Shown in pieces: positions 1 to 44,580 of a stretch of DNA of 44,710 nt (the stretch's first letter is position 1; every line of letters begins with the position of its first letter). The notes under the pieces were generated by a model. The model did no database searches. It saw only the letters and a program-made list of their open reading frames with translations, and was not told the DNA's origin. Source of the DNA: a virus; the IMG/VR virus record IMGVR_UViG_3300037419_000655, positions 1-44,710 of that record; one strand, given 5' to 3'. The translations under genes were made by a program, and so were the position numbers.

Positions 1-117
1 TCGCGACCCGCCTCTCCGCGAAGGTAGAGGCGGGGTTCTCGGCTGTCGTGGGCTTTTCCACGCGCGTGGTCGAGCTGAAAACCGGCTACGAGCGCCGCAA
101 CGCCAACTGGCTCAATC
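1..117. repeat. Terminal overlap, copy 1 (identical to 44594-44710)
   Basis: Read by eye, the 117 nt tcgcgacccgcctctccgcg...caactggctcaatc occur at both window ends. The repeat lies inside a coding region. Confidence 0.95.
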
Positions 118-584
118 CCAAGCGCCGCTTTACCGCACGCACCGCAGGCTGGACGCCCGACATGCGCGCCGAGTTGCTGAACCTCGCACACGCGGCCCGT
201 GGCTCGCTCTACGGCTTTCTGTTCAAGGACTGGAACGACTACAGCGTCACCGCGCAGTCGCTCGGCACCGCACCGTCCGGTTCCACGCCCGTGCAGTTGG
301 TCAAGACCTACACCTACGGCTCGGAAACCTACACCCGCACGATCACCAAGCCCGTCGCCTCCACGGTCACGGTCTACCAGAACGGTGTCGCCAAGGCGGG
401 CTCGCTGGACGAAACCACCGGGCTGTTCACGCCGACGACCGCATGGACGGCCGGGGCTGCCTTGACGTGGACCGGCGAGTTCCTGGTGCCCGTGCGTTTC
501 GCCTCGGACGACATCGAGTTCGTCCTGCCGCACCGCGACATCGCGGAAGTGGTCTGCGAGCTGGTCGAGGTGTTCGGTGAGTAA
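1..584 (+). CDS. Distal tail protein, DUF2460 / RcGTA g12-like (5' end supplied by 44584-44593)
   Basis: The frame of ORF 48-584 is open to base 1. It follows the tape measure and precedes DUF2163-like, NlpC/P60 and host-specificity genes, which is the conserved GTA-type order. Confidence 0.75.
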   Translation, partial: ATRLSAKVEAGFSAVVGFSTRVVELKTGYERRNANWLNPKRRFTARTAGWTPDMRAELLNLAHAARGSLYGFLFKDWNDYSVTAQSLGTAPSGSTPVQLVKTYTYGSETYTRTITKPVASTVTVYQNGVAKAGSLDETTGLFTPTTAWTAGAALTWTGEFLVPVRFASDDIEFVLPHRDIAEVVCELVEVFGE

Positions 585-2664: not shown

Positions 2665-3113
2665 TGCCTCGACTGATCCCGCGACTGTCCGCTGCGGAGC
2701 GGACGGCGTTCATTGCGGCTGCGCGTTCGCATCTGGAGGTGCCCTTCAAGCACCGTGGGCGCTCATCCAGAGGATTGGACTGTCTCGGGCTTGTGGCAGT
2801 GAGCTTGGCGGCCATCGGCTACGCGCCGCAGCAGGACGAGCGTCTTTACGGGCGGCATCCCGAGCCGGATGGAGAAAAGCTGCGCGCGTCTCTGTGCGAG
2901 CATTTCGGCGACCAGATCGCGCTCGACCGCACAGCCCCCGGTTGCGTGGTTTACATGCGCTGGCACAAGCGACCCAACCACGTCGCCATCATCGGCGACT
3001 ACTACCTCGGCGGCCTGTCGCTCATTCACGCACTCTGGGAGTCGGATCGCGTTGTTGAGACGCGACTGGCTGGCCCGTGGCCTCGCCGCATCCTCGGAGC
3101 GTGGCGTCCATGA
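2664..3113 (+). CDS. NlpC/P60-family cell-wall peptidase (RcGTA g14-like), 149 aa
   Basis: ATG overlaps the upstream TGA. Has a GLDCLGLV Cys motif and an HVAIIGD His motif, and sits between the hub and host-specificity genes. Confidence 0.75.
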   Translation: MPRLIPRLSAAERTAFIAAARSHLEVPFKHRGRSSRGLDCLGLVAVSLAAIGYAPQQDERLYGRHPEPDGEKLRASLCEHFGDQIALDRTAPGCVVYMRWHKRPNHVAIIGDYYLGGLSLIHALWESDRVVETRLAGPWPRRILGAWRP

Positions 3114-7098: not shown

Positions 7099-7806
7099 AT
7101 GAGTGCCATCCAGCAAGTGCTGCTAGCCGAGGGCGGCGGTAGCAGCGCCAGCGTGGTCGCCTGCCTGCTGCATTTCGACGGCACCGGCTCCACGTTCGTG
7201 GATGAGACAGGCAAGACCTGCACCGCCTCCGGCGGGGCCACGCAGAGTGCGACGCAATCCGTCTTCGGCGGGAAGTCGCTGGACCTGTCGGGATCGGCCG
7301 GTCGCGTTGAGGTCGCCGACTCGACGGACTTCGACTTCGGCACGGGCGCATTCCTGATCGAGTGGCGCGAGTACCACACCAGCAACACGGGATTCCAGAA
7401 CGCCTTTTCGCGCGGCTACAACATCGCGGGAGGCATGTTCTTCCAGTCCGCCAGCAGCGGCGCCAGCACGCGCGCCCTGTATTTCGTGGATTCGGGCGGC
7501 ACAGCCCAAAGCATCACCACGGCGGTCTCTTACGGCACCCTGAATACTTGGGCCGCTTGGGCGATCCAGCGCGATGCAACGGGAGTGGTGCGTATTTTCA
7601 GGGACGGCACGCAGTTGGCGTCCGGCGGGCCGTCCACCAACTCACAGCTCAGCCTCGGCCTGCGCGCCCCATTCGTGATCGGCGCCGACAATGCATCGTC
7701 GTTCTGGCTGCATGGCTACATTGACGAGTTCCGCGTGCAGAAGGGCGTGGCGCCGTATACGTCGAGCGGCTACACCCCGGCCTCAAGTGCGTTCACGTAT
7801 CCATAA
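7099..7806 (+). CDS. Concanavalin-A/LamG-like lectin-fold protein (putative receptor-binding accessory), 235 aa
   Basis: ATG follows directly after the upstream TAA. The pattern CLLHFDG...FGGKSL.L...V.V.DS.DFDFGTG.F.IEW... is typical of LamG/Laminin_G_3 domains in tail fibres. Confidence 0.55.
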   Translation: MSAIQQVLLAEGGGSSASVVACLLHFDGTGSTFVDETGKTCTASGGATQSATQSVFGGKSLDLSGSAGRVEVADSTDFDFGTGAFLIEWREYHTSNTGFQNAFSRGYNIAGGMFFQSASSGASTRALYFVDSGGTAQSITTAVSYGTLNTWAAWAIQRDATGVVRIFRDGTQLASGGPSTNSQLSLGLRAPFVIGADNASSFWLHGYIDEFRVQKGVAPYTSSGYTPASSAFTYP

Positions 7807-8752
7807 GCGGTTGTAGCTTCGGCCGCCGCACCCACGCCTCGATGGTGTGGTACGACAGCGCGGACAAGGCGACGGACGCGACCAGCGTCACCGGCAACAC
7901 GACCTGCCACGATTGTCCGTCCAGCAGGCGCGCGATCGGGTAGTGCCAGAGATAGATCCCATAAGACAGCTTGCCGAGGTAGGTCATCACCCGCGATTCC
8001 AGCCACGCGGGATGCTCGCCGATGATGGCGAACGCGGCGGCGATCTCGACCGTCGTGATGCCCGGCCCCTGTGCGTACTCGCCCTTCCACGGCAGGTAGA
8101 AGGCGACGAACGCCAGCGCCACCAATGCGGGCCATGCGGGGAACTTCTGACGCGGGAAGTGCGCGAGCAGGCAGCCCAGCACCAGCCCCGACAGGCGCAT
8201 GTCAAACCGCGTGTAGAACGCATCCCAGCCGTGCGCCTGTAGGCGCCAGACGGTCGCCGCGACAAACCCCCACGCCAATGCCTTCACGCTCGGCCGGAAG
8301 CGATAGAACACCAGCGGCCACAGCAGGTAAAAATGCTCCTCGACCGCCAGGCTCCACGTGTGGCCGAGATAGTCCGGCATCGCCCAGAACGTCTTGGCGT
8401 AGTCGGACAGGTACAGGATCGACAGCCCCGCCTCGATGTAGTGCGGGTAATTCGGCACGACGACGTAGAACACCGTCAGGTACACGGCCAGCATGACGGC
8501 CAGAGGCGGCGTCAGCCGGCGCAGGCGGCGGATGTAGAACTGCCGGAGGGTTGGCTGCGTCTCAGCCAGCAGCCGCGTGATGAGGTAGCCGGACAGGACG
8601 AAGAACACGTCCACGCCGATGAACCCGCCGCGCGCCCAGCCGGCCCCGGAATGGCAGCACACCACCGCGAGGACCGCGAGGGTGCGCAGGCCATCCAAGC
8701 CGGGGATGTATTGCATCGCCCGGAGGCCGTCAATGGCCGGGAGGTGTTTCAT
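7793..8752 (-). CDS. Acyltransferase-3 family membrane protein (OafA/O-antigen acetylase type), 319 aa
   Basis: MKHLPAIDGLRAMQYIPGLDGLRTLAVLAVVCCH...GVDVFFVLSGYLIT is the family signature, and the protein has many TM segments. The ATG at 8752 has a GGAGA RBS. Its 3' end overlaps the convergent LamG gene by 14 nt. Confidence 0.85.
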   Translation of the reverse strand: MKHLPAIDGLRAMQYIPGLDGLRTLAVLAVVCCHSGAGWARGGFIGVDVFFVLSGYLITRLLAETQPTLRQFYIRRLRRLTPPLAVMLAVYLTVFYVVVPNYPHYIEAGLSILYLSDYAKTFWAMPDYLGHTWSLAVEEHFYLLWPLVFYRFRPSVKALAWGFVAATVWRLQAHGWDAFYTRFDMRLSGLVLGCLLAHFPRQKFPAWPALVALAFVAFYLPWKGEYAQGPGITTVEIAAAFAIIGEHPAWLESRVMTYLGKLSYGIYLWHYPIARLLDGQSWQVVLPVTLVASVALSALSYHTIEAWVRRPKLQPLMDT

Positions 8753-8767
8753 GCGTTGTCTCCCCAA

Positions 8768-8778
8768 CACCCTATCGC
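8768..8778. promoter_or_regulatory. Candidate integrase arm-type site (CACCCTATCGC), left arm of attP
   Basis: Same CACCCTAT octamer as the three phased copies at 8987-9016 on the other side of the tRNA-derived core. Confidence 0.45.
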
Positions 8779-8986: not shown

Positions 8987-9016
8987 CACCCTATTTCCAC
9001 CCTATTACCACCCTAT
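8987..9016. repeat. Three tandem CACCCTAT repeats with 11-bp phasing (8987, 8998, 9009), candidate Int arm-type sites
   Basis: gCACCCTATttcCACCCTATtacCACCCTATcg. The last copy overlaps the integrase stop codon. Confidence 0.55.
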
Positions 9017-10113
9017 CGCGGCAGCAAAATGCCGACCGCGACCTCCTGCCACGGGGCTTCGTGCCCCTCCAGATAGACCTCGGTCATGGCGGCGCTGCTG
9101 TGCCCCATAAGCGCCTGGACCTGTTCCAGCGTCCACCCGGCATCCTTGAGCAGCGCGCCGCCGAGGCTACGTACCTCATGAAACGTGGGCGGGTTGTCGC
9201 CCTCAATGCCAGCTTCGTCGCGCGCATCGGCGAACGCCCGCGATAGCTGCTCGGGCAGGACTTGCGTGTGATGGCTTCGGTCCTTGGCGCGCATGTGGCT
9301 TGGGCGCGCTTTCCCTGGCAACCGGTGGATCAGGTAGGGCGACAGCACGGAATCACGGCAGCGGGCAATCAGGGCCGCCAGCTCATCGTTCACGGTGATT
9401 TTCAGCCGCACGCCCGTGGACCCTTCGGTCTTGCTCGGGACGACGCACAGCGCCCCGCCACGCTCGTCCGAGAATCGCAGAGACACCACGTCCTCGCGCC
9501 GCAGCAGCGTCAGCAGGGACAGATCCATCGCGTTCTGCACCCATGCGGGCGCTTTGGCGTGGATCGCCTTGTACGTTTCCAGTGTCAGCCGCTCGCGCTG
9601 GCGTTCGTGGGTGAACTTGCGGGTCGCCAAGGCCACGTTGGTGTCGGCCCAGCCTTCCTCCACCGCGCAGGCGAGAATCCAGCCCAGCACGAGCCGGAAC
9701 TGTTGCCGCGCTCGGGGCGATTCGGTGACGCCCCGGATGAAGGTGGCGCAGTCCTTGACGGTCAGCGTCGCGACGGTGCGATCCCCCAGCCCCTTCTCAA
9801 TGCGCTGGATGACGCTTTCATAGACCTCGGCGGTCTTGGGTGCCCACTTGCGGCCCGGCACGTCATCGCGGCGGAACACGGTGATCGCATCCGCCACCGT
9901 CTCCTGTGCGCCCGTCACCCGCTCCACAAGGTCGCCGCTCGTCACCAGCAGGGCATTGAGCTTCTTGGCCGCGGCGAATGCCTTGGCCTTGTCCTGCCCC
10001 ATCCACGTCTCTTTCCGCGTCACCGGATGCCGGTACTTGAACCCGCCCCGGTTGGGGTAGAGGTTGTCCGGCCAGCCGGCGCGGGCTTTGGATCGGGCGC
10101 GTCCCATTGCCAT
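9013..10113 (-). CDS. int: Tyrosine recombinase / phage integrase, 366 aa
   Basis: The lambda-Int-like N-terminus GWPDNLYPNRGGFKYRHP suggests an arm-binding domain. The C-terminus HEVRSLGGALL...LMGHSSAAMTEVYLEGH carries H-x-x-R, the second His and the catalytic Tyr. Adjacent to attP. Confidence 0.95.
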   Translation of the reverse strand: MAMGRARSKARAGWPDNLYPNRGGFKYRHPVTRKETWMGQDKAKAFAAAKKLNALLVTSGDLVERVTGAQETVADAITVFRRDDVPGRKWAPKTAEVYESVIQRIEKGLGDRTVATLTVKDCATFIRGVTESPRARQQFRLVLGWILACAVEEGWADTNVALATRKFTHERQRERLTLETYKAIHAKAPAWVQNAMDLSLLTLLRREDVVSLRFSDERGGALCVVPSKTEGSTGVRLKITVNDELAALIARCRDSVLSPYLIHRLPGKARPSHMRAKDRSHHTQVLPEQLSRAFADARDEAGIEGDNPPTFHEVRSLGGALLKDAGWTLEQVQALMGHSSAAMTEVYLEGHEAPWQEVAVGILLPR

Positions 10114-23538: not shown

Positions 23539-23814
23539 ATGGGTCGCCGCGTTCGCATCAATCCTGCCGTACAAGCCCGCCTCAATCAGCGGGTGCGCGG
23601 CGCACGTCGGGAAACCATTTACAAGATGATCGCCAAGCGCAACTGCGGGCAGGTTCCGTGCTTCGTTTGCGGCCGCCATGTGGCGCATAACAGGGCCACG
23701 CTAGAGCACATCGTTCGGCGACGGGATGGTGGCACAGACGACATGAGCAACCTGTCGATCTCTCATGAGTGGTGCAACAGCCATCGTGACGCCATTGAAG
23801 CGAGGCGCGCATGA
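23539..23814 (+). CDS. HNH endonuclease, 91 aa
   Basis: CFVCGRH...ATLEHIVRRRDGGTDDMSNLSISHEWCNSHR is an HNH motif. Confidence 0.8.
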   Translation: MGRRVRINPAVQARLNQRVRGARRETIYKMIAKRNCGQVPCFVCGRHVAHNRATLEHIVRRRDGGTDDMSNLSISHEWCNSHRDAIEARRA

Positions 23815-25544: not shown

Positions 25545-25720
25545 GCCTACTCGCCAAGCTCATCCCGCAGATCAAGCTGCGCGTCCTGCTGCCATGCACC
25601 GCATGGGGCGCGGTGTGCTTCGGGACCATGCACGGCCCGCGCATCGTGTACGCGCTGGTGGTCGGCTGCGTCGCCATCGCCCTTGGGGTCGGCGTCATGG
25701 ACGGGAGGAAGATCCGTTGA
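25541..25720 (+). CDS. Small membrane protein, 59 aa
   Basis: ATGA overlap at 25541-25544. Two hydrophobic stretches. Confidence 0.45.
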   Translation: MSLLAKLIPQIKLRVLLPCTAWGAVCFGTMHGPRIVYALVVGCVAIALGVGVMDGRKIR

Positions 25721-26460
25721 CTCGCATCCTGACGATCGACATCGAAACGCGGCCGATGGAGTCACGCCATTGGGGGCTGTGGAGCCAGAACATCGGCATC
25801 AGCCAGATCCAGCGACCGGACGGGATGCTCTGCTTCGCGGCGCAGTTTCACGGGGAACGCCGCGTCCACTTCGCAAGCCAGTGGGGCGATGGTGAGCGGG
25901 GCATGGTCAAGGCCGCGCATCGCCTGCTGGACGAGGCGGACGTGGTGATGGGATGGAACAGCGACAAATTCGACATCCCGTGGCTGCAACGGTGTTTCAT
26001 CGAACAGAAGATGCCGGAGCCCGCTCCGTTCAAGTCGTATGACTTGATGAAGGTGGTCAAGAAAAAGGCGCGACTTCCATCCTACAAGCTCGCCTTCGTA
26101 GCGCAGTGGTTGGGGGTGGGGAGCAAGCTGCGCACGGGCGGCTGGGACTTGTGGGATGACGTGCTGGCCGGCGACACCAAGGCGCACGACAAGATGCGCC
26201 GCTACAACATCCAAGACACGCGCCTGACTGACGCCGTGTATTCCGAGCTGCACAGCCGGGGTTGGGCTTCGCCGCCTGTCAACGCCTCGATTCGTGGCGG
26301 CTTCGTCTGCCCGCATTGCGAGAGCGAGCGGCTTCAGTCGCGCGGCTTCATGGAGAGCGCGACGCGCCTCTACCAGCGGTGGTTCTGCCGCGACTGCGGT
26401 CGGTGGTCGAAGTCCGTCCATTCCGAACCGGGCAGCGCAAAGCTCAAGGCGGCGGCCTGA
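25717..26460 (+). CDS. DnaQ/PolB-exo-like 3'-5' exonuclease with a C-terminal zinc ribbon, 247 aa (TTG start)
   Basis: TTGA overlap. ExoI ILTIDIETRP, ExoII MGWNSDKFDIPWL and ExoIII YNIQDTRL motifs. The C-terminus has CPHC...CRDC. Confidence 0.8.
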   Translation: MTRILTIDIETRPMESRHWGLWSQNIGISQIQRPDGMLCFAAQFHGERRVHFASQWGDGERGMVKAAHRLLDEADVVMGWNSDKFDIPWLQRCFIEQKMPEPAPFKSYDLMKVVKKKARLPSYKLAFVAQWLGVGSKLRTGGWDLWDDVLAGDTKAHDKMRRYNIQDTRLTDAVYSELHSRGWASPPVNASIRGGFVCPHCESERLQSRGFMESATRLYQRWFCRDCGRWSKSVHSEPGSAKLKAAA

Positions 26461-26645
26461 TGCTGCTGCCAAACCACCCGCGCCTTCGCTTCGCACTCAA
26501 GCTGCTGCTGGCGGTGACGTTCCCTATTTGGGTTTTTGCGCTGATCCCCATCGCAGTTGTTGCGTTGGTGGGAATTATGGTTTGGGAGAGTGTCTGTGAC
26601 ATCGTGGACGGCCGGCCATCACGTGGGCTTGGGGCCGGCCGATGA
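26460..26645 (+). CDS. Small membrane protein, 61 aa
   Basis: MLLPNHPRLRFALKLLLAVTFPIWVFALIPIAVVALVGIMVW. The start shares a base with the upstream stop. Confidence 0.5.
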   Translation: MLLPNHPRLRFALKLLLAVTFPIWVFALIPIAVVALVGIMVWESVCDIVDGRPSRGLGAGR

Positions 26646-27160
26646 GCGCAGAAACCGCCATCGAGGTACAGGCTGACTACCAGATCAAGGGGCCGGATCT
26701 CCGCAGCTACTACGCCGGCTTTACCCGCCGCGCATTGCCCGAGGGTGCGATCTGGCGGCTGTCCCTCGCATCCTCCTGCCTGCCCACCGGACACCCCGGC
26801 TACATGGCGTGGATGACGACCGTCTCCGGCACGGAGCGGTTCGTGCCCGAGCTGCAACGCTGGGCCGTTGGGCTGGGGGCGACCATTGCCCGCATGAAGC
26901 CCAAGCTGCGCCAGCGGGGCCGGCAGTACGTCGCGAGCTACGGCCACGCATGGGGGCGGCAGGCGAGCCTGGATGGCCTCGTGCTGGCCCTGTTTGGGGC
27001 GGAGAACGTCACGAGCCTGCGGGAGCGCGCCGAGGCCCACAAATGCGACCGCGAGGCGTACCAGCGTATCCGTGACTTCGTGGCGGGGGCGATCCTGCTC
27101 GCTTCGTGGCAGTATGAGGACAGCCTGCGGTGGGCGCATCGGGTGGCGCGAGATGCTTAG
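26642..27160 (+). CDS. Hypothetical protein at the position expected for a late-gene regulator, 172 aa
   Basis: ATGA overlap and normal composition. No recognisable motif. It is the last sizeable gene before the late/lysis terminator. Confidence 0.6.
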   Translation: MSAETAIEVQADYQIKGPDLRSYYAGFTRRALPEGAIWRLSLASSCLPTGHPGYMAWMTTVSGTERFVPELQRWAVGLGATIARMKPKLRQRGRQYVASYGHAWGRQASLDGLVLALFGAENVTSLRERAEAHKCDREAYQRIRDFVAGAILLASWQYEDSLRWAHRVARDA

Positions 27161-27380
27161 CTGGCGTATCTCACCGCCGCAGCCGAAGCCCAAGGCGGGC
27201 GATACCCGCGAGGTGACGAGACTGCTGTGGTGGCCGACGCGAGCGGGCGACGAGGTTCGGTGGCTTGGCCTCGCTCGTATCCGGCAAGAGGCATACATCG
27301 GCTGGTGCTGCCCGCCTGAGATGCGTCCTTACAAATGCCTCAAGTGGCGAAACGTCGAATGGGTGGCGAGGGACGCATGA
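27153..27380 (+). CDS. Hypothetical Trp-rich protein, 75 aa
   Basis: The ATG at 27153 overlaps the upstream gene by 8 nt. Confidence 0.5.
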   Translation: MLSWRISPPQPKPKAGDTREVTRLLWWPTRAGDEVRWLGLARIRQEAYIGWCCPPEMRPYKCLKWRNVEWVARDA

Positions 27381-27610
27381 CTGACTGGCAAGCAAACTAT
27401 CTGAGTTTGGTGGCCGAGCTGCGTGAGCAGGCCGATTGGTGGCAGGCCAGAGCCAAGGAATGCACAAGGCCCGGAGAAAGCGCAATGCTTGACGGGTGCT
27501 CGCGCAAAATTCGGATGATCGTTGATGACTTTAGAGACGAACAAGGCAATCGCAGGCCGACAGGACCGCGCGCTACGCCCGCCAGCCTAGAAAATCCGCG
27601 CGACACTTAG
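27377..27610 (+). CDS. Hypothetical protein, 77 aa
   Basis: ATGA overlap at 27377-27380. Reads MTDWQANYLSLVAELREQADWW... Confidence 0.55.
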   Translation: MTDWQANYLSLVAELREQADWWQARAKECTRPGESAMLDGCSRKIRMIVDDFRDEQGNRRPTGPRATPASLENPRDT

Positions 27611-27645
27611 GGTGATGGGGAGATTTATTTCCCCGCCCGGATGCT

Positions 27646-27670
27646 CCGGCTAAGGACGCCGGGTTCTTTT
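27646..27670 (+). terminator. Putative intrinsic terminator at the early/late boundary
   Basis: CCGGC-taaggac-GCCGG followed by gTTCTTTT. An alternative outer pairing CCCGG(27636-27640)/CCGGG(27659-27663) competes with it. Confidence 0.45.
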
Positions 27671-27685
27671 CTAGGGGGCCTCCGA

Positions 27686-28159
27686 GTGACCACGATTGCG
27701 TACTCGGCAGGCACGATGGCCGCCGATACGCAGGTCTCCGCAGGCGGGCGCAAGTTCCGCACGCACAAGGTCAAGCGCCTGAAGTGCGGCGGGCTGATCG
27801 GCTCCAGCGGCAAGCTGGCCGACATCCTGAAGATCCAGCGGTGGGCCGAGGCGGGCTTCCCCGAGGCTGACAAGCCGGACTTCGGCGACGAGGGCGAGTT
27901 CGAGTGCCTGATCGTCACCGGGGCGGGCGACGTGTACCTCTTGGACGAGGACATGGAGCTGATGCCCTTCATGGATGCCTTCATCGCGGTCGGGTCCGGT
28001 GGCCCGTATGCGATGGCGGCGATGGAGTGCGGCCGGAATCCGGCCGAGGCGGTGGCGGTGGCGGCGAAGTTCGACGCCAACACGTCCGAGCCGGTCGAGG
28101 TGTTTCGCGTGGAACCGAAGGAGGCTCCGCGTGGACGACGACGCGCTCGCCGAGCTTGA
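27686..28159 (+). CDS. HslV / proteasome-beta-like Ntn-hydrolase peptidase, 157 aa (GTG start)
   Basis: V-TTIAYSAG places Thr right after the initiator. HKVKRL, LIVTGAGDV and IAVGSGGPYAMAA parallel E. coli HslV TTIVSV, KKVRRL, LIITGNGDV and IAIGSGGPYAQAA. Confidence 0.8.
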   Translation: MTTIAYSAGTMAADTQVSAGGRKFRTHKVKRLKCGGLIGSSGKLADILKIQRWAEAGFPEADKPDFGDEGEFECLIVTGAGDVYLLDEDMELMPFMDAFIAVGSGGPYAMAAMECGRNPAEAVAVAAKFDANTSEPVEVFRVEPKEAPRGRRRARRA

Positions 28160-28334
28160 TCTGGCCGCGATGGACCTGCTGCGCTGCTACGAACGGTTGG
28201 GCGTCGCGGCCATTGTCGTGACGTACCCCGGCGAGGCCATTTTCGTGCGCTGCCAGAACGCAGGCGACGTGGTGCCGCTGTGCAAACGGGTGATCGAAGA
28301 ACACGCAGCGCCGGCCGACCGGACGCTGAATTAG
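28131..28334 (+). CDS. Hypothetical protein, 67 aa (GTG start), overlapping the HslV-like 3' end by 29 nt
   Basis: An AAGGAGG RBS lies just upstream of the GTG. Reads VDDDALAELDLAAMDLLRCYERLGVAAIVV... Confidence 0.45.
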   Translation: MDDDALAELDLAAMDLLRCYERLGVAAIVVTYPGEAIFVRCQNAGDVVPLCKRVIEEHAAPADRTLN

Positions 28335-28360
28335 GCGCTTGCGCCAACAGGGGTAAGCGC

Positions 28361-28543
28361 GTGAAAGACGTAGGCAAGGACTTGGCGCTCGCTACGCCTG
28401 GAATAGGCGTGGCGGCGACGGGGATCATGGGATTCCCGTGGTCGCAACTGAGCTACATGCTCGCGGCGATCTACACGTTCCTGCTGATCTGCAAGTTCGT
28501 GTGGGACCGGGTGAAGGGATGGCAGGCCAAGCGCCGCGCCTAA
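28361..28543 (+). CDS. Holin candidate (two TM segments, basic C-terminus), 60 aa (GTG start)
   Basis: LALATPGIGVAATGIMGFPW and LSYMLAAIYTFLLICKFVW are followed by DRVKGWQAKRRA. Lies immediately upstream of, and overlapping, the endolysin. Confidence 0.6.
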   Translation: MKDVGKDLALATPGIGVAATGIMGFPWSQLSYMLAAIYTFLLICKFVWDRVKGWQAKRRA

Positions 28544-28986
28544 GCCCGAAAGCCGCAGGTGCCGTCCTGGCGCTGGCGGCGGGCATCGTGGCGATGTGGG
28601 AGGGCTACCGGCCCATCCCGTACCGCGACGTGATCGGCGTCCCCACGGTCTGCTACGGCCACGCACATGACGTACAGGACCGCACGTACACGCGGGCCGA
28701 GTGCAAGGCGCTGCTGGAAGGCGATCTGGCGCAAGCCTACGCCACGGTGCGGCGCTGCATCACGTGGCCGCTCAAGGATTACGAAGCGGCGGCCCTGACG
28801 AGCGCCACGTACAACATCGGGCCTCGTGTGGTCTGCGGCTCCACGCTGCAAACGCTGGCGAACCAGGGCGACATGACCGGGGCGTGCAACCAGCTCATGC
28901 GCTGGAATCGTGCCGGTGGTCGGGAAGTTCTGGGCCTGACGCGACGCCGCGCGGCCGAGCGTGCGATGTGCTTGGGGGAAACATGA
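28519..28986 (+). CDS. SAR-type endolysin, GH24 (T4/P21 lysozyme family), 155 aa
   Basis: The weakly hydrophobic N-terminus AAGAVLALAAGIVAMW precedes the catalytic EGYRPIPYRDVIGVPTVCYGH (E-x8-D-x5-T). Confidence 0.85.
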   Translation: MAGQAPRLSPKAAGAVLALAAGIVAMWEGYRPIPYRDVIGVPTVCYGHAHDVQDRTYTRAECKALLEGDLAQAYATVRRCITWPLKDYEAAALTSATYNIGPRVVCGSTLQTLANQGDMTGACNQLMRWNRAGGREVLGLTRRRAAERAMCLGET

Positions 28987-29102
28987 AACGCATCGCCTTC
29001 TGGCTGTCGTGGATGTGCGCGGTGCTGGCCTTCCGGCTGGCGCATTACGCGAAGGACGGCGTGGGCGAGGCGGACGAGTACAAGGTGGGCGGGACGGACT
29101 GA
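28983..29102 (+). CDS. Hydrophobic micro-protein, 39 aa
   Basis: ATGA overlap with the endolysin stop. Reads MKRIAFWLSWMCAVLAFRLAHYAK... Confidence 0.4.
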   Translation: MKRIAFWLSWMCAVLAFRLAHYAKDGVGEADEYKVGGTD

Positions 29103-29281
29103 TGACGCTGTTTCTTGTTGGACTTGCCTGCCTCATCGTCGGTAGCTGGCTGGGGATTGCGCTTGCGCGATTCCATAAGCCTATTCGCGCATGGCGGGAA
29201 CGCATATGGCGATTGGCCCTGTATGGCGACCCGCGCGAGGAGTTGTGTGCCTTCATTCGTGGCGATCGTGACGCCCGATGA
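29102..29281 (+). CDS. Small membrane protein, 59 aa
   Basis: The start shares a base with the upstream TGA. Reads MTLFLVGLACLIVGSWLGIALARF... Confidence 0.45.
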   Translation: MTLFLVGLACLIVGSWLGIALARFHKPIRAWRERIWRLALYGDPREELCAFIRGDRDAR

Positions 29282-29379
29282 CTGAGATTCGCCCGCTACA
29301 GGCTCCGGCCTTTCAGCCATTCGCTCGCAACCTGCTAACGGTCGCGATCTGCGGCGCGTTGTATGGCGTGTTCGCATGA
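29278..29379 (+). CDS. Possible micro-protein, 33 aa
   Basis: ATGA overlaps at both ends and a hydrophobic C-terminus LLTVAICGALYGVFA. Third-position G/C bias is only moderate. Confidence 0.3.
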   Translation: MTEIRPLQAPAFQPFARNLLTVAICGALYGVFA

Positions 29380-29507
29380 CCCCTAACAAGCGCGCCACCC
29401 TGCTGACCGCCTTGGTCGCCGTGATCGGCGCGGGCTTGGTCGTGTGGCACCTGATGACAGGTGGCGAGTGGGCGCAGTTGCTGGCGGCGATCTGGCCGCG
29501 TTCGTAA
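29376..29507 (+). CDS. Small membrane protein, 43 aa
   Basis: ATGA overlap. Reads MTPNKRATLLTALVAVIGAGLVVWHL..., with high G/C at third positions. Confidence 0.4.
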   Translation: MTPNKRATLLTALVAVIGAGLVVWHLMTGGEWAQLLAAIWPRS

Positions 29508-29669: not shown

Positions 29670-30200
29670 ATGAAGCTGGCCGCACTCCTGGCGCTGGTTC
29701 TCTCCGGGTGTGGCTGCGTGTCATTGCCCGTTCCCGATGTCCACCTGACGACCCATCGCTTGGACATGGCCGGCGGCATCTGCTCGGGCACGGCGATCGC
29801 GGACAACAAGCTGCTGACCGCCTACCACTGCAAGGCCCTTGGCGGCCCGCTGGTGAAGGTGGATGGCTGGGAGGTCGCCCCGGAGTCCTACTCCGGCAAC
29901 GAGGACCACGACACGTTGGTCATCACGCTGCCCGGCCATCCGTTCACGCATTGGGCGCGCATTGGGGCGCGACCGAAGCAAGGTGATCGCGTGCGGTGGT
30001 GGGGCAATCCCGAAGGGGAGCAGGACGTGTATCGGCAGGGCTACGTCGCCAAGGTGACGGACAGCGCCATCATCGTGGACGCCACGATCTGCCATGGGGA
30101 CTCGGGCAGCGGCCTGATGAACGACGCAGGCGAAGTGGTGGGTGTGGTGAGCGCCATGAGTGACGAAAACGGCTGCACGTTCCTGCTGGCGCACGGATGA
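29670..30200 (+). CDS. Lipoprotein trypsin-like (S1/chymotrypsin-fold) serine protease, 176 aa
   Basis: Signal peptide with the lipobox MKLAALLALVLSGC. His motif TAYHC, Asp in EDHDTLVI, and Ser motif CHGDSGSGL. Confidence 0.8.
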   Translation: MKLAALLALVLSGCGCVSLPVPDVHLTTHRLDMAGGICSGTAIADNKLLTAYHCKALGGPLVKVDGWEVAPESYSGNEDHDTLVITLPGHPFTHWARIGARPKQGDRVRWWGNPEGEQDVYRQGYVAKVTDSAIIVDATICHGDSGSGLMNDAGEVVGVVSAMSDENGCTFLLAHG

Positions 30201-30541
30201 AACTGCTGGACGCGGTTGTCCCGTATTGGTTCTGGATCAAATGGGGAGCGGTCCTGATCGCCTTGGCGCTGCTGGTGCGCTGGCTGGTCGGTATGGGCTA
30301 TGACCACTGCGAGCTGGAGCACTTCAAGGCGCAGGACGCGCTGATCCAGCAGGCCGCCACGCGCGCCGCTGTAACCGACAAGAAACTGGCCGAGGCGCTG
30401 CGCAAGCTGCCGCCCACGGGCCACCGCGTAAGCGAGGCGGTCCATGCGCATCCGACAAGCCCTGACTGCCGCGTGCCTGACGCCGTTGCTGATGAGTTGC
30501 AGGACGGTATCCGTGCCGGTGCGGCCAACACCGCCCCCTGA
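30197..30541 (+). CDS. Rz: i-spanin (Rz-like), 114 aa
   Basis: ATGA overlap. N-terminal TM WFWIKWGAVLIALALLVRWLV, then a helical periplasmic part. The downstream lipoprotein gene overlaps it. Confidence 0.7.
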   Translation: MKLLDAVVPYWFWIKWGAVLIALALLVRWLVGMGYDHCELEHFKAQDALIQQAATRAAVTDKKLAEALRKLPPTGHRVSEAVHAHPTSPDCRVPDAVADELQDGIRAGAANTAP

Positions 30542-30689
30542 TGCCTCGCAGCTCTGCGAACGGCTACAGGACGTGCGTCGCGGCATGACGCTGGACGACC
30601 TGCTCCAGTGGGCGGGCGTGACGATCGAGCAATACAACCGATGCGCAGCGCGGCACAAGGCGCTGAGTGATTGGGCGAGGGGTAAGTGA
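30444..30689 (+). CDS. Rz1: o-spanin (Rz1-like lipoprotein), 81 aa
   Basis: Lipobox LTPLLMSC and a Pro-rich mature N-terminus. Starts inside the Rz frame and extends beyond it (overlapped architecture). Confidence 0.75.
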   Translation: MRIRQALTAACLTPLLMSCRTVSVPVRPTPPPDASQLCERLQDVRRGMTLDDLLQWAGVTIEQYNRCAARHKALSDWARGK

Positions 30690-34458: not shown

Positions 34459-35897
34459 AAGCGACTCGGGAAGAAATGGCAGCGGCCATCGAGCGCGCCC
34501 GCAATTCGGCGACCTTGCGCGAGCCGGAGTGGTGGCGGCAGATGCCGGCCTTTGCGCCGACGATCTCCGGGCAGACGGTCACGCCGGAAACCGCCTTGGC
34601 GGTCACGGCAGTCTATGCGTGCGTGCTGATCCTCGCCGAATCGGTGGCGTCGCTACCGTTGAGCGTATATCGCCGGCTGCCCAATGGCGGCAAGGAAGTC
34701 GCGACCAACCATCCGGTCCATCAACTGCTCCACGTCGCCCCCAACGACGAGCAGACGGCCTTCGAGGCCATCGAGTACCGCATGGCCTGCCTCGGGCTGC
34801 GAGGCAATGCCTACAGCGCGCTGACGATCAACGGGCGCGGTGACATTCGCGACATCCAGCCGCTCCGCCCGCAGCACATGCGGCTGGACCGGGACGCGGC
34901 GGGCCGCTTGGTGTTCGACTACCAGGAGCCGGGCGCGGCGAAGGTCTACCCCAAGAACCTGATCTGGTACACGCGCGGCTTCGGGACGGACGGCGTGACC
35001 GGTCTGTCGCCCATCGGCGTGCATCGCGAGGCCATCGGCTACGCGATGACGCTGAACGAGCATGGCAATCGGATGTTCGCTAACGGGGCGATGGTGGGCT
35101 CAACCATCGAAGTGCCGGTGGAGTGGTCGGAAACTGCCTTCCAGAACTTCAAGGCCGACTTCAAGGAAAACCACGGCGGGCGGCTCAACGCTAACAAGCC
35201 GCTGATCCTCGAGGCGGGTGCGAAGTTCAACACCATCGGCATGTCGCTGGTGGATGCAGAATACATCGCCAGCCTCAAGAATGCGATTGCGGAAGTTGCG
35301 CGAATCTACCGCATTCCGCTGCACATGCTCAACGAGTTGGAGAACGCGACGTTCTCGAACATTGAGCACCAGTCGCTGGAGTTCGTGACCCGCACGCTGC
35401 TCCCGTGGCTCAAGCGCATCGAGGATTCCGCGAACCGCGACCTGTTCGGGCCGCTGGAGCGCGGAACGTACTACGTCAAGTTCAACGTGGACGCCCTGCT
35501 GCGCGGTGACATCAAGAGCCGGTATGAGGCGTACCAGATCGCGGTCGGCGGCAATAACGGCCCCGGCTGGATGGCCCGTAACGAGGTCCGTGTCCTAGAG
35601 GACATGGACCCATTGCCGGGGCTGGACGAGATCTACGTCCCGGCTGCACCTGCTGCGCCAAAGCCCGGCGATCCGGCAGCAGAGAAGCCGCAGAAGGCCG
35701 GCAACAAGCTGCCCGCCATCGTCAAGGCGCTGCGGATAGAGCGCGAACGGCGCACGGACGACAGCAATTTCCACGGCTGGGCCAGCGATTACCTGCATCG
35801 CATGTGCGAAGGCACGGATACCAACCCCCACGACATGCTGGATGACCTCCAGACCCTCGGCGTAGAAGGCGCAATCGACCAATGGCTGAAATCCTGA
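34455..35897 (+). CDS. Portal protein, HK97 family, 480 aa
   Basis: GTGA overlap with TerL. Size and order (TerL-portal-protease-capsid) fit, along with the conserved ...NLIWYTRGFGTDGVTGLSPI... core. Confidence 0.9.
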   Translation: MKATREEMAAAIERARNSATLREPEWWRQMPAFAPTISGQTVTPETALAVTAVYACVLILAESVASLPLSVYRRLPNGGKEVATNHPVHQLLHVAPNDEQTAFEAIEYRMACLGLRGNAYSALTINGRGDIRDIQPLRPQHMRLDRDAAGRLVFDYQEPGAAKVYPKNLIWYTRGFGTDGVTGLSPIGVHREAIGYAMTLNEHGNRMFANGAMVGSTIEVPVEWSETAFQNFKADFKENHGGRLNANKPLILEAGAKFNTIGMSLVDAEYIASLKNAIAEVARIYRIPLHMLNELENATFSNIEHQSLEFVTRTLLPWLKRIEDSANRDLFGPLERGTYYVKFNVDALLRGDIKSRYEAYQIAVGGNNGPGWMARNEVRVLEDMDPLPGLDEIYVPAAPAAPKPGDPAAEKPQKAGNKLPAIVKALRIERERRTDDSNFHGWASDYLHRMCEGTDTNPHDMLDDLQTLGVEGAIDQWLKS

Positions 35898-36505
35898 TCT
35901 ACGACGACATCGGCCCAGAGGAGTGGGGCGGGGTGTCGGCAAAGGCCGTCAAGGCGCAGCTCGACGCGATGCCGGAGGCCGACCAGATCGTGGTCCGCAT
36001 CAACTCGCCGGGCGGCGACGTGTTCGACGGCTTCGCGATCTACAACCTGCTCAAGCAGCACCCGGCCCACATCACCGTCAAGGTGGACGGCATGGCGGCC
36101 TCGGCTGCGTCGGTCATTGCGATGGCTGGCGACACCATCGAGATGGCCTCCAACGCTCGCATGATGATCCACAACCCGTGGACGCTCGCTGTGGGCGACT
36201 CGGCGGAAATGCGGAAGAAGGCCGAACTGCTCGACCAGATCAAGGAATCCATCGTCGCGACCTACAAGGCGCGCGTGAAGATGGAGGAGGCCGACATCGC
36301 CGAAGCGATGGACTCCGAATGGTGGTTCGGCGCCAAGGCTGCCATCGAGCATGGCTTCGCCGACGCCGAGTCCGGCGCTGCCAAGGCCATCAATAACACC
36401 GCGAAGCCGTGGATTCGCAATGCGCCCGTGGAGCCTGTCGCTCCCGAGCCGCCTGCTGTCCCCGAGTTCCGCATCGCTGCCCGCCAGCGGTTCCCCATTA
36501 GCTAA
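35882..36505 (+). CDS. Prohead maturation protease, ClpP/S14-like, 207 aa
   Basis: INSPGGDVFDGFAIYNLL...VDGMAASAASVIAMAGD contains the Ser-site context of ClpP-type head proteases. Confidence 0.9.
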   Translation: MAEILIYDDIGPEEWGGVSAKAVKAQLDAMPEADQIVVRINSPGGDVFDGFAIYNLLKQHPAHITVKVDGMAASAASVIAMAGDTIEMASNARMMIHNPWTLAVGDSAEMRKKAELLDQIKESIVATYKARVKMEEADIAEAMDSEWWFGAKAAIEHGFADAESGAAKAINNTAKPWIRNAPVEPVAPEPPAVPEFRIAARQRFPIS

Positions 36506-41502: not shown

Positions 41503-44500
41503 ATGACCGAAGAAAGCATCGGCACTGCCCGCCTAGATCTGGTGGCGGACACGTCCGAGTTTGTCGTCGGCGTGGAGGCTGCCAAGAAAGCGACGGCTGA
41601 CCTTGGACGTGCGACGCAACAGTCCGCCAAGGTCGCGGCCGATGGCATTGCCAAGACCAACGCGGCGGCCCGGAGTACGGCCGATGCGATTCGCGGTTCG
41701 GCCAACGCGGTCGAACAGAACACGCGACGCCAAATCAATTCGCTCGAAAAGCTGGCCCGTACATACGGGCTGACCCGTGAGGAGCAGATCCGTTACCGGA
41801 TCGAAACGCAGACCACGGGCGACGTACAGAAGCGCCTGCTGGCGATCTTTGACCAGCAGGTCGCGAAAGTTAACAGCAGCGGCCGCGCGCTCGATGCCTA
41901 TGGCATGAGCGCCAAGCAGACCGCCGCTGCCTTGCGCGGAGTCCCGGCACAGCTCACTGACATCTTCACCGGCCTTGCCACCGGCCAGCGTCCGATCAAC
42001 ATCCTGCTCCAGCAGGGCGGTCAGTTGAAGGACATGTTCGGCGGCATCGTGCCGGCCATCCGTGCCGTTGGTGGCGCTGTTGCGGGCCTCATCAACCCGT
42101 TCACCCTGGCGGCGGCAGCGGTCATCGGGCTGGGAGTGGCGTGGAACAAGGCCAACGACGAAGCCGAGGCGTTCAACAAGGCGCTCATCCTGTCGGGCAA
42201 TGCAGCAGGCCTGACACGCCAGCAGTTGGAAGGTGTCGCGGCCTCGATTGCGAACACGACCGACGCCACGCAGGGCAAGGTGTCCGAGGCGCTGGCGCAG
42301 GTGGCGGCGTCCGGGCAGTTCACCGCCAAGCAGATGCAGATGGTCGCGCAGGCGGCCGTCGAAATGCAGCAGGCGACCGGCCAGTCGATCGAAAAGACGG
42401 TGCAGGACTTCGCCTCGCTCAAGGGCGATCCGCTCGACGGCATCCTCAAGCTCAACGACGCGATTGGTGACGGCACCAACGTCGTCCGCTTCCTGACGCA
42501 AGCCCAGGCCGAGGAAATCGCCAAGCTCAAGGAGCAGGGCGACACCGCAGGGGCCACGGACCTGGCGTTCAAGGCGCTGTTCGATGGCATCAACTCGCGC
42601 GCTCCACAGGCTGCGCAACAGATGTCGCTGCTCGGCGGCGTGCTGCACACCATTTCGGTCGAGGCCAAGCAAGACCTCGACGCCATCGTCGGGTTCTTCC
42701 GGGGTGCGGACGAAGGCATCCGTAGCTTCATCCTCACCCACGAGAAGATGTTGCGGTCGGTAGGCAATGTGGCGGCGGCTTTGCCGGGCAACATCTTCGG
42801 CAACGCGCAGTTGGATGTCCTCAATTCGACCATTGACGCCGCCAAGCGCGCGTCCCGCCCGACCTTCTCCAATGTCACGGACGGGAGCGGCGCGGCGGAC
42901 GCCTCCAAGATTCACGCCCGCGAAGAAGCGCAGCAGGAATTTGACCGGCTCGCCCTGAGCAACCTCAGCAAGCGCGAGAAGCTCGAAAACGAGATCAAGG
43001 ACATCCGCGAGAAGGGGCTCGCGGCGGGCAAGTCCCAGCTTGCCATCGAGACGGCCGTGGCCAACGCCCGAGCCCGCTACGCCGAAAGCCAGAAGAAAGG
43101 CAACTCCGGCGCGGGCATTGAATCGGCCACGTCAAAGAATGCCATCCAGGCGTTCGAGGACCAGCTCAAGAAAGAACAGGGGCTGATCGCCAACCAGACG
43201 CAGGTGCTGGAGGCGAACTACGCCGCCCGCAACATCACGGTGGCCGCCTATTACAAGGAACAGAAGCGCCTCGCCCAAGAAAACACCGACGTGCAGGTCA
43301 AGGCGCTGGAGGGGGAGATCGCCGCGCTCAACGCCCGAAACGTCAAGGGCAAGGTGTCCATCGAGAACGCGACGCAGATCGCGCAGAAGGAAGCCGAGCT
43401 TGCCAAGGTCCGCGCCGATGGCGCAACCAAGCTGGAAGTCCTGAACATTCAGGAGGCCGCGCAACTCAAGCAGCGCCAGCAGTTGCTGACCTCCTACAAC
43501 GACGCACTGAAGCAGACTGAGGACACGCTCAAGGACGAGCTGGACAACCAAGTCCTCCGCATCTCGATGGGCGAGCGCGAGTTCGAGATGCGCTCGCGGA
43601 TCAACCAGATCCTGCGGCAGCAGTCGAAGGAATTGCTGGACTTGGCCCGCGCTCGCGACGCCGATCCGGCCAACGCCGACCTGTACGACAAGCAGGCCGC
43701 CGCACTGGAAGCCTCCGTGCAGCGCCAGGTGCAGGCCGTGCGCGACGGCTACAAGGCCATGTCAGAGGCGCAGGCGAACTGGTCGAACGGCGCGATCAAG
43801 GCGTTCACCGACTACGCGGACGCCGCCAACGACGTGGCGGGACAGACCTACGGCATCTTCTCGGATGCCCTGCATGGTCTGGAGGATGTCTTCGTTGACT
43901 TCTTCACCAAGGGCAAGGCGGACTGGAAGGGCTTTTTTGACGGCATCGCGGCCGAGATCACCCGGTTCGTGGTCCGTCAGCAACTGAGCAAGCTCGCGCA
44001 GAAGTTCCTGCCGGGCCTGACGGGCGATCAGGGCGATTCCTCGGCCAGCGCCCTGTCCGGTGCAGCGGGGCAGCTCGCGGCGTCCGCGACGCCGTTGTAT
44101 GGCGCGGCGGCGGCCCTGAGCGCGTCTGCGTCCGCCTTGGCTGCGGCCGGTGGCGCTCAGGGCATCAGCGGCGGTGCCACCACGGGCGGCAGCGGCGGTT
44201 GGATCGATGCGCTGTTCTCCCTGTTCTCCAGCGGTGGCGGCGAGCAGTGGTACGCCAACGGCGGCGCGTTCTCGCGAGGGCAAGAAGTCCAAGCGTTCGC
44301 CTATGGCGGCGTCGTCTCCAGTCCGACCAATTTCGGCATGTCCGGTGGCCGCCTCGGATTGATGGGCGAGGCGGGCCCCGAAGCCATCCTGCCATTGCAT
44401 CGCGGTCCTGACGGAAAGCTCGGCGTGCGGATGGAAGCGGCGAACGAGCCGCAGCGCACCGGCCCGACCGTCGTCCAGCAGACGGTCCTCGTGCAGGGCC

Positions 44501-44580
44501 GCATCGACTCCCGCACCGCTTCCCAATTCGCGCAGGCGACCGCCCGCGAACAGAACCGCGCGTCCTCCCGGAATCGCTAA
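41503..44580 (+). CDS. Tail tape measure protein (lambda-family C-terminus), 1025 aa
   Basis: Long helical protein after the G/GT pair. The C-terminus ...[44 protein letters not shown] is the lambda-type TMP signature. Confidence 0.95.

Follow-up and report, generated by a model that had tools for sequence, protein, structure and literature searches.

A putative PPH-family proteasome-like peptidase encoded at the head of the lysis cassette of a temperate phage

The IMG/VR record IMGVR_UViG_3300037419_000655, analysed here over its full length of 44,710 nt (64.7% GC) and referred to as the window, carries on its plus strand, at positions 27686-28159, a gene for a proteasome/HslV-like peptidase of 157 residues with an N-terminal threonine. 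The match to phrog_1040, profile searches and an AlphaFold2 model place the protein in the PPH family, and as a sequence finding the gene adds one more ordinary member to this already named and annotated phage family. In the window it is preceded by a gene for an RNase_H_2-type exonuclease (25594-26460), a gene for a conserved protein of 172 residues (26642-27160, plus strand) and a 525-nt stretch with a poor coding signal (27161-27685). From 27686 onwards PPH opens a group of genes that continues with an open reading frame (ORF) for a 67-residue protein, a holin gene, an endolysin gene and small membrane ORFs. The sequence-only reading that was followed up here had placed the peptidase at the head of the lysis cluster, and the holin and GH24 endolysin genes indeed follow directly. 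Related loci are denoted by L-numbers (L001, L002 and so on), of which L001 is a prophage of Lysobacter panacisoli, L020 belongs to Stenotrophomonas sp. AB1, L010 is Salmonella phage SPAsTU, and L043-54, with L050, are IMG/VR contigs.

The peptidase frame is open from 27641 to 28159 on the plus strand. The start codon that agrees with the family is the GTG at 27686, which yields a chain of 157 residues beginning with VTTIAYSAG and is preceded, at a distance of 7 nt, by the Shine-Dalgarno sequence AGGGGG (27673-27678). An M/V-T-T N-terminus is found in 241 of the 262 PPH homologues that were used for the statistics on starts, lengths and tails, the median length of the family being 147 residues. 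The GC content at third codon positions (GC3) of the ORF is 0.85, compared with 64.7% GC for the genome. The short motifs on which the sequence-only reading was built, i.e. VTTIAYSAG, HKVKRL, LIVTGAGDV, IAVGSGGPYAMAA and the C-terminal PRGRRRARRA, are all present in the translation. The protein comprises a core of ~145 residues and a tail of 12 residues, starts with fMet-Thr-Thr and has no propeptide. A start at ATG 27641, which would add a propeptide of 15 residues, was rejected; this ATG lies inside a hairpin, the family begins with M-T-T, and the extension, as judged by eye, is not conserved, a TGA intervening in L002 and no such ATG being present in L011. In L012 (3564-4040) the PPH frame has ATC (Ile) before TTIAY at the place where the others have ATG or GTG, with a GGAGG 8 nt upstream, so that this gene either starts, unusually, with ATC or encodes a longer precursor beginning at an upstream ATG.

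With the single sequence as query, the PHROG entry phrog_1040 ("peptidase HslV family") is matched over residues 1-147 with E=1.5e-35; the general libraries respond weakly, with E=0.035 for Pfam Proteasome (14.2 bits vs a cut-off of 22.4) and E=0.002 for HslV in a search of the Protein Data Bank (PDB). A family profile built from 39 PPH homologues, with identities down to 29%, matches HslV (1m4y, E=1e-11), BPH (5ovs, 4e-11) and the proteasome β5 subunit, and its position 2 is aligned to the catalytic Thr1 of HslV. In these 39 homologues Asp14, Lys28, Gly42, Gly103, Gly105 and Asp130 are invariant, and Met1, Thr2, Thr3 and Ser104 are at least 90% conserved. The catalytic equivalents in the peptidase are Thr2, Asp14, Lys28, Gly42, Ser104-Gly105 and Asp130, which correspond to Thr1, Asp17, Lys33, Gly47, the Ser129-Gly130 loop and Asp166 of the proteasome. 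The AlphaFold2 model of the peptidase (pLDDT 94, pTM 0.86) is most similar in a Foldseek search of the PDB to BPH (5ovt, E=1.5e-8) and HslV (1m4y), with E-values of ~1e-8 and 20-21% identity, and also resembles proteasome β subunits. In the model a single helix (residues 44-55) lies between strands 37-42 and 72-77, at the place where HslV has helices H1 and H2, and the last structured element is the strand 137-141. The sequence-only reading had assigned the protein to the proteasome/HslV superfamily of N-terminal-nucleophile (Ntn) peptidases, with Thr1 and the catalytic lysine in register with HslV, and had proposed a profile search and structure prediction; this assignment is upheld by profile, alignment, model and Foldseek search, the HslV and proteasome matches being significant with both the family profile and the model. 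Judged from its sequence, the protein is very probably a catalytically competent Ntn peptidase of the PPH family.

Members of the family are numerous. A tblastn search finds homologues in 123 GenBank phage records, all below 60% identity and many of them annotated as HslV-family peptidase, and 46 predicted viral structures match in Foldseek at E<=1e-3. The profile search of 1.84 billion cluster representatives (50%-identity clusters) returns 13,714 clusters at E<=1e-3, 9,846 at E<=1e-10 and 896 at E<=1e-30; the proteins of the best 150 clusters are nearly all 137-170 residues long and aligned from residue 1. PPH homologues also occur in prophages of Lysobacter and Stenotrophomonas. One viral contig of 42,035 bp, IMGVR_UViG_3300047469_000099 (L036, L038), carries two different PPH genes near its opposite ends, with products 38% and 36% identical to the query and each preceded by the same set of large ORFs.

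The PPH family was described in 2021 by bioinformatics only (PMC8665760). Its members contain ~140 residues, lack helix H2 and the C-terminal elements S12/H5, fall into group I together with HslV and BPH, and derive from Caudovirales and from prophage regions of Proteobacteria; the authors' set, represented by WP_042125023.1, is set apart from AAH, RPC and BPH (PMC8665760). The peptidase of the window shows every feature of this description that was tested, i.e. the fold with its Thr/Asp/Lys triad, oxyanion Gly and GSG loop, a compact size of ~140-150 residues with a Met-Thr-Thr start and no propeptide, the absence of H2 and S12/H5, and an origin in a proteobacterial tailed phage or prophage. 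Nothing essential differs, the 12-residue Arg-rich tail being what the window member adds. The assignment was made through phrog_1040, the size and the missing H2, matched to the published description rather than to the authors' CLANS map, and is in that sense indirectly supported. Among the proteasome-like Ntn hydrolases, PPH forms a compact branch, encoded by phages, of the HslV/BPH group. HslV-like proteins of phages that come without an unfoldase were thus already known, from the PPH family, the PHROGs and many GenBank phage annotations, and both the orthology to HslV and the novelty that had been proposed for the window protein give way to membership of a published family. Its description is silent on the function of PPH, on the time of its expression and on any rule for its gene neighbourhood (PMC8665760), and literature searches on the function of phage HslV-like or PPH proteins returned only this bioinformatic work and passing mentions in genome annotations; the earlier statement that no role has been described for such a phage protein still holds.

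Among the relatives of known structure, HslV (ClpQ) shares the fold and the catalytic residues and is one of the two best solved matches. However, the identity is only 17-23%, PPH is ~20-30 residues shorter, and H2 and part of the first hairpin are missing; in the HslV profile alignment, the extra HslV residues fall at the point of the missing H2. The scores lie far below the HslV equivalog cut-offs (27.4 bits vs 137 for NF003964 and 27.1 vs 157.75 for TIGR03692), and no hslU gene is present next to the peptidase gene or anywhere in the window, its neighbours being a small ORF and the holin gene. Because the score, the AAA+ partner and the H2 features all fail, the peptidase is not HslV. A recent capture of HslV from a host was rejected as well, in view of the ~20% identity, the scores far below the cut-offs and the missing H2. 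BPH, the best match in Foldseek and a close match of the family profile, belongs to group I like PPH, and like PPH has no described ATPase partner or substrate (PMC8665760). It is encoded on bacterial chromosomes and has chains of ~180-200 residues (PDB entries 5ovs, 5ovt and 5ovu), which assemble into a double heptamer of subunits with both H1 and H2, whereas PPH is smaller and lacks H2. The family profile aligns well with BPH over the C-terminal half only.

The window encodes no AAA+ unfoldase, as had been noticed before. A six-frame scan of the 44.7-kb window for the Walker-A motif [AG]x4GK[ST] gave one loose match, within a tail protein, and AAA+ or HslU families are absent from the family scans of 24 window proteins. 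The P-loop of the terminase is a variant of the motif, and no other gene with a Walker-A P-loop is found in the 44.7 kb.

The Arg-rich C-terminus (approximately residues 146-157), to which the sequence-only reading had drawn attention, is present, and is of low confidence or disordered in the AlphaFold2 model. From sequence comparison, it is in part a side effect of the exchange of a block with the ribosome-binding site and start of the gene that follows. This block (28081-28363) is 94.8% identical at the nucleotide level between the window and L003/L004 and holds the last 79 nt of PPH, the AAGGAGG ribosome-binding site and the whole 67-residue ORF. The body of PPH shows no nucleotide similarity to that of L003/L004 and 40% amino acid identity, and the holin is of a different family. 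Identical tails with the sequence EAPRGRRRARRA are found on the otherwise diverged PPH proteins P0034 and P0046, because a recombination junction lies inside the 3′ end of the gene, and PPH alleles have been swapped by recombination. Lys/Arg-rich tails of unrelated sequence recur in 85 of the 262 homologues (~30%), including those of loci without an overlapping ORF, and for this reason the basic tail may nevertheless have a role of its own.

The 67-residue ORF (28131-28334, plus strand) starts with GTG, overlaps the peptidase gene by 29 nt and encodes an acidic protein (pI 4.4) with three cysteines, which is apparently translationally coupled to PPH. The overlap and the ribosome-binding site reported previously are both there, AAGGAGG being located at 28118-28124, one base off the position implied before and 6 nt upstream of the GTG at 28131. 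In L002, whose DNA is diverged at this place, a 71-residue ORF has a product 54% identical to that of the window; the product of a 66-residue gene in L001, the prophage of Lysobacter panacisoli, is 36% identical and is encoded 3′ of the spanins. The ORF is absent from the PPH loci L011, L012, L020 and L043-54, is represented by five clusters only in a database of 5.8 billion proteins, and has no family hit in scans of Pfam, PHROG and NCBIfam. From its conservation, the ORF is a real gene. It was rejected as an obligate partner or inhibitor of the peptidase, since it is relocated in L001/L032 and absent from many PPH loci.

The presence of PPH in its slot is optional. With the exonuclease gene instead of PPH as the anchor, 14 close relatives with a downstream lysis cassette and the same layout were compared; six of these contain PPH (L060-63, L067 and L068), and eight do not (L058, L059, L064-66, L070, L071 and L094). 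The comparison indicates that PPH is an accessory gene, of which alleles with 40% identity share one slot that in some relatives also holds tRNA genes. Such tRNA genes adjoin PPH in several unrelated phages and prophages: tRNA Gln and Trp in Lysobacter panacisoli (L001, 6478-6719), tRNA Ser in Stenotrophomonas sp. AB1 (L020, 5438-5524), tRNA Thr in an IMG/VR contig (L050, 4842-4917) and tRNA Trp in Salmonella phage SPAsTU (L010, 3011-3086).

The plus-strand leader in front of PPH contains a -10-like box, TAGGGT (27608-27613), a first hairpin, GGGGAGA-TTTA-TTTCCCC (27617-27634), and then a terminator-like hairpin with the arms CCCGG (27636-27640) and CCGGG (27659-27663), which is followed by TTCTTTTCT; the terminator-like element as a whole spans 27636-27672 and lies 5′ of the ribosome-binding site of PPH. 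The boxes TATGGG and TATGAG, together with the same first hairpin and at an equal distance to the PPH start, are found in L012, L031 and L067, and in L002 only the -10-like box lines up. This box may represent a promoter. The hairpin CCCGG...CCGGG and the T-rich run are kept at the same place in L002, L011, L012, L031 and L067, where L003 has another hairpin with TTTC, so that the terminator-like hairpin proposed by the sequence-only reading is confirmed in existence and conserved in position. An ORF of 91 codons (27335-27610) failed the GC3 filter and has no family hit; it was rejected as a gene, and the region was treated as a non-coding leader.

The conserved 172-residue protein encoded upstream (26642-27160) is all-helical in its AlphaFold2 model (pLDDT 86). 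It has 72 homologue clusters, and its homologues precede PPH or the lysis genes in the majority of the related loci, the distance between the gene and PPH ranging from 97 to 1,045 nt. No match to Pfam, PHROG or PDB sequences was found, and the fold search gave nothing of significance, its top hit being the AlpA-loaded complex 7xyb_G (E=0.44). The protein is a candidate late-gene regulator, a Q-like antiterminator possibly of a new family.

Downstream of the 67-residue ORF, all on the plus strand, the holin gene (28361-28543) encodes a class II holin of the T7 type (phrog_920, E=5e-12, with a weak match to Pfam Phage_holin_2_2). The ORF of the GH24 endolysin is open from GTG 28438, and its likelier start is ATG 28519 (28519-28986; PF00959, E=2e-38; phrog_7, 4e-52). 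From the latter start the protein begins with MAGQAPRLSPKAAGAVLALAAGIVAMW, a hydrophobic N-terminus typical of signal-anchor-release (SAR) endolysins, next to a class II holin; we infer both the ATG 28519 start and the SAR-like segment from the sequence. Two small ORFs with a hydrophobic segment follow, at 28961-29281 (containing MTLFLVGLACLIVGSWLGIALA) and at 29376-29507 (MTPNKRATLLTALVAVIGAGLVVW), which may encode further lysis-control or exclusion proteins. The next gene (29670-30200) encodes a Trypsin_2 serine protease with the lipoprotein signal MKLAALLALVLSGC (PF13365, E=2e-11; phrog_9683, 1.7e-11). This protease is kept 3′ of the endolysin in L001-4, L011, L012, L020, L031-33 and L043-54, and we are not aware of a described role in lysis cassettes for a periplasmic protease that is a lipoprotein. 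The cassette closes with the spanins (30197-30689), comprising an i-spanin candidate (30197-30541) and an overlapping o-spanin-like ORF (30444-30689; phrog_456, Rz-like spanin, E=5e-11), both at positions that are conserved in relatives.

The gene order exonuclease, 172-residue gene, PPH, (small ORF), holin, GH24 endolysin, Trypsin_2 protease, spanins and terminase is observed in L001-4, L011, L012, L020, L031-34 and L043-54, at PPH identities down to ~35%, and is kept by six PPH-anchored contigs (35-68% identity) and most of the IMG/VR loci. Among the 68 ORFs located 3′ of PPH in 20 dereplicated loci, 12 encode endolysins and five encode trypsin-like proteases. This locus survey was seeded by an alignment of 12 sequences of one clade, so that the contexts are biased towards the clade of the window; a scan of bacterial-genome contigs with the same clade pattern yielded one prophage only.

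A separate observation concerns the IMG/VR contigs L043, L044, L045, L048, L049, L052 and L054, in which the GH24 endolysin genes contain an in-frame TAG at ~5.6-8.6 kb in the locus. In the same loci the genes of the trypsin-like proteases are also interrupted by TAG wherever the junction was read, and each contig has a tRNA with anticodon CTA at 2.4-3.5 kb 3′ of PPH. The presence of TAG in the lysis genes together with the CTA tRNA suggests that in these phages, with 57-58% GC, the late and lysis genes are read by means of amber suppression or a recoded TAG.

The remainder of the window agrees with a temperate siphophage-like genome, as family scans of its proteins identify an integrase, a terminase, a portal and tail genes. 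Tail genes occupy 48-6100, and an O-antigen acetyltransferase-like gene on the minus strand (7793-8770; phrog_6705, E=9e-48), likely a lysogenic-conversion gene by its similarity, adjoins the integrase gene (9013-10113, minus strand). Replication genes start at 20189, with RusA at 23811. Tailspike, small and large terminase subunit (TerS, TerL) and portal genes follow the spanins from 30775; a ClpP-like prohead protease gene (35882-36505; PF00574, E=9e-33) adjoins the portal gene, and a candidate capsid gene, from its position only, begins at 36616. An ORF of tape-measure size is located at 41503-44580. A megablast search with the whole window against GenBank phages gave a 53-bp match only, and the phage is therefore unsequenced as an isolate.

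The survey of phage homologues and their neighbours, which had been suggested with the sequence-only reading, shows that the contexts of PPH vary. In a 45-kb virulent E. coli siphophage, which belongs to a group of 41-46 kb also found on Klebsiella and Salmonella, two holin genes and an endolysin gene lie directly 3′ of PPH; in contig L014 the endolysin gene is two genes 5′ of PPH, and in Stephanstirmvirinae phages of 137-150 kb the order is endolysin, PhoH, one further gene and a PPH-like gene. Elsewhere PPH neighbours HNH genes (OP1, DSL-LC04), a primase gene (XM05), tRNA genes (SPAsTU), PhoH (a Vibrio phage) or NAD-salvage genes (MD18), and in phiM5 it lies between TerL and portal. Counting GH24 endolysins only, PPH is found within three or four genes of an endolysin in ~4 of ~15 genome types, not all of which are independent lineages. 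The link between PPH and lysis genes is thus recurrent in a suggestive manner, and is not established.

To understand how the peptidase may act, its features were considered together with those of the locus. From the chemistry of the family, removal of the initiator methionine would expose the threonine as residue 1 and thereby the nucleophile, and the equivalents of Asp17, Lys33 and Gly47 together with the GSG loop complete the active site. The lack of a propeptide, of H2 and of an AAA+ gene suggests that PPH is a cytoplasmic enzyme that probably needs no unfoldase and acts on peptides, or else on a substrate that is unstructured or specific. Weak peptidase activity is on record for HslV by itself (PMC7730581). 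As regards expression, the layout of a regulator-like gene, a leader, PPH and lysis genes points to late expression together with the lysis proteins. PPH would be the first cistron after the leader hairpin and T-run and would be made late by read-through or antitermination, as at pR′-tR′. Lambdoid phages have a comparable slot between the late promoter/terminator pR′-tR′ and the lysis genes, which is occupied, for instance, by tRNA or stx genes in Shiga toxin (Stx) phages. The locus of the window resembles this slot in its regulator-like gene, its leader with a hairpin terminator, its optional cargo that includes tRNAs, and the holin, endolysin and spanin genes that follow; it differs in that no similarity between the candidate regulator and known Q proteins was detected, and promoter and antitermination are proposed by analogy. 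With moderate confidence we favour the account in which PPH is an unfoldase-independent cytoplasmic peptidase, accessory to the phage and made late with the lysis genes. Of its parts, the co-expression of PPH with the lysis genes as an accessory late gene is the more probable, judged from the gene layout, and action without any ATPase is held tentatively and with some doubt.

Several observations weigh against this account. The independence from an unfoldase is argued from absent features, BPH being likewise without a described substrate, and the sequence alone is compatible with an ATPase partner from the host. As a bare pattern, the hairpin is not above chance, with one site found against 1.7 expected in shuffled sequences, and no compensatory changes in the hairpin were seen in relatives. 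The 172-residue protein has no significant match to known antiterminators of the Q type. Finally, in view of the other contexts, with HNH genes, TerL and portal, primase, PhoH, NAD-salvage genes or tRNAs, the position of PPH in the window may say little about what it does.

The substrate could lie within lysis itself, if the peptidase cuts a cytoplasmic target that sets the timing of lysis or weakens the envelope, e.g. a lysis inhibitor or a host enzyme of envelope synthesis such as LpxC, which acts in LPS synthesis and is a known substrate of host HslV(U). The position of PPH within three to four genes of the GH24 endolysin in four genome types (Xanthomonadales temperate phages, virulent siphophages, L014 and Stephanstirmvirinae) is consistent with such a lysis-accessory function, as are the 12 endolysins among the 68 downstream ORFs and the retention of a second protease, the Trypsin_2 lipoprotein, in the same cassette. 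In E. coli, the level of LpxC falls when HslV is overproduced (PMC7730581), which makes LpxC a speculative lead, and a lead only, for a lysis-related target of PPH. On the other hand, close relatives with the same lysis cassette do without PPH, so that it is not needed for lysis, and about two thirds of the lineages examined have no lysis gene near PPH. In lambdoid phages accessory genes gather in the slot after the late promoter, and the adjacency of PPH to the lysis genes may be positional only; moreover, the survey of the 68 ORFs was made with a clade-biased pattern on loci that are not independent. A lysis-accessory protease is considered unlikely. The same low probability is given to the broader proposal that PPH represents a widespread and so far unrecognised class of lysis-associated effectors, acting alongside the periplasmic lipoprotein protease in the phage group of the window.

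Equally unlikely, in our estimate, is a protease for host takeover or anti-defence, which would degrade a specific host protein, such as a stress regulator or an immunity factor, and for which the site next to the lysis genes would be incidental. The polymorphism of PPH, with presence and absence and with alleles 40-99% identical in one slot, is of a kind often seen in genes for interaction with the host. The gene is also very common across unrelated phages, in which its surroundings differ, and in large phages it is found among auxiliary genes (PhoH, NAD salvage, phosphatase). However, expression behind a terminator, if rightly assigned as late, would come late for defences that act early, and neither a defence-related neighbour nor homology to known anti-defence proteins came to light, although the search did not include the PADLOC library.

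The sequence-only reading had also suggested that PPH borrows or poisons the HslU of the host. In this case the protein would pair with host HslU to give a hybrid protease with new targets, or would shut down host HslUV by titrating HslU or mixing into the HslV rings. Proteobacterial hosts generally carry hslVU, HslV is among the closest solved relatives of PPH, and the phage has no AAA+ gene of its own. In HslUV structures, though, it is the H1/H2 face of HslV that contacts HslU, and PPH lacks H2, is 17-23% identical to HslV and reaches 27 bits with the HslV models, compared with cut-offs of 137-158. In addition, invariant catalytic residues are not needed for pure sequestration and argue for catalysis, and the suggestion is weakened to the point where we regard it as quite improbable.

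Least probable is a peptide ligase or transpeptidase like archaeal connectase, or an enzyme that processes a single protein of the phage: the proteasome-like superfamily does include the specific ligase connectase (PMC8665760), and the position of PPH between terminase large subunit and portal in phiM5 is a possible place for morphogenetic processing enzymes. Within the superfamily, however, connectase is placed in a group distant from that of PPH, HslV and BPH, PPH is not accompanied by any conserved gene that could encode its substrate, and the phage already has the ClpP-like prohead protease at 35882-36505. A role of PPH as the prohead protease was rejected for the phage of the window, in which that ClpP-like protease gene adjoins the portal gene.

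As an unfoldase-independent, late-expressed peptidase or otherwise, PPH ranks among the commonest phage-encoded peptidase families, with hundreds to thousands of 50%-identity clusters, and is the only proteasome relative native to viruses. The window supplies a genetic setting for it, in a temperate phage of the Lysobacter/Stenotrophomonas group in which PPH would open the late lysis transcript as its first cistron. New in the present analysis are the conserved position at the late leader, the optional presence, the exchange of alleles, the independence of the 67-residue ORF and the recurrent, though unproven, neighbourhood of endolysins. Natural relatives with PPH, without PPH and with divergent alleles form ready-made controls. 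Knowledge of what PPH cleaves would explain how an active site of the proteasome type can be of use without an unfoldase, and could reveal a new step in late infection.

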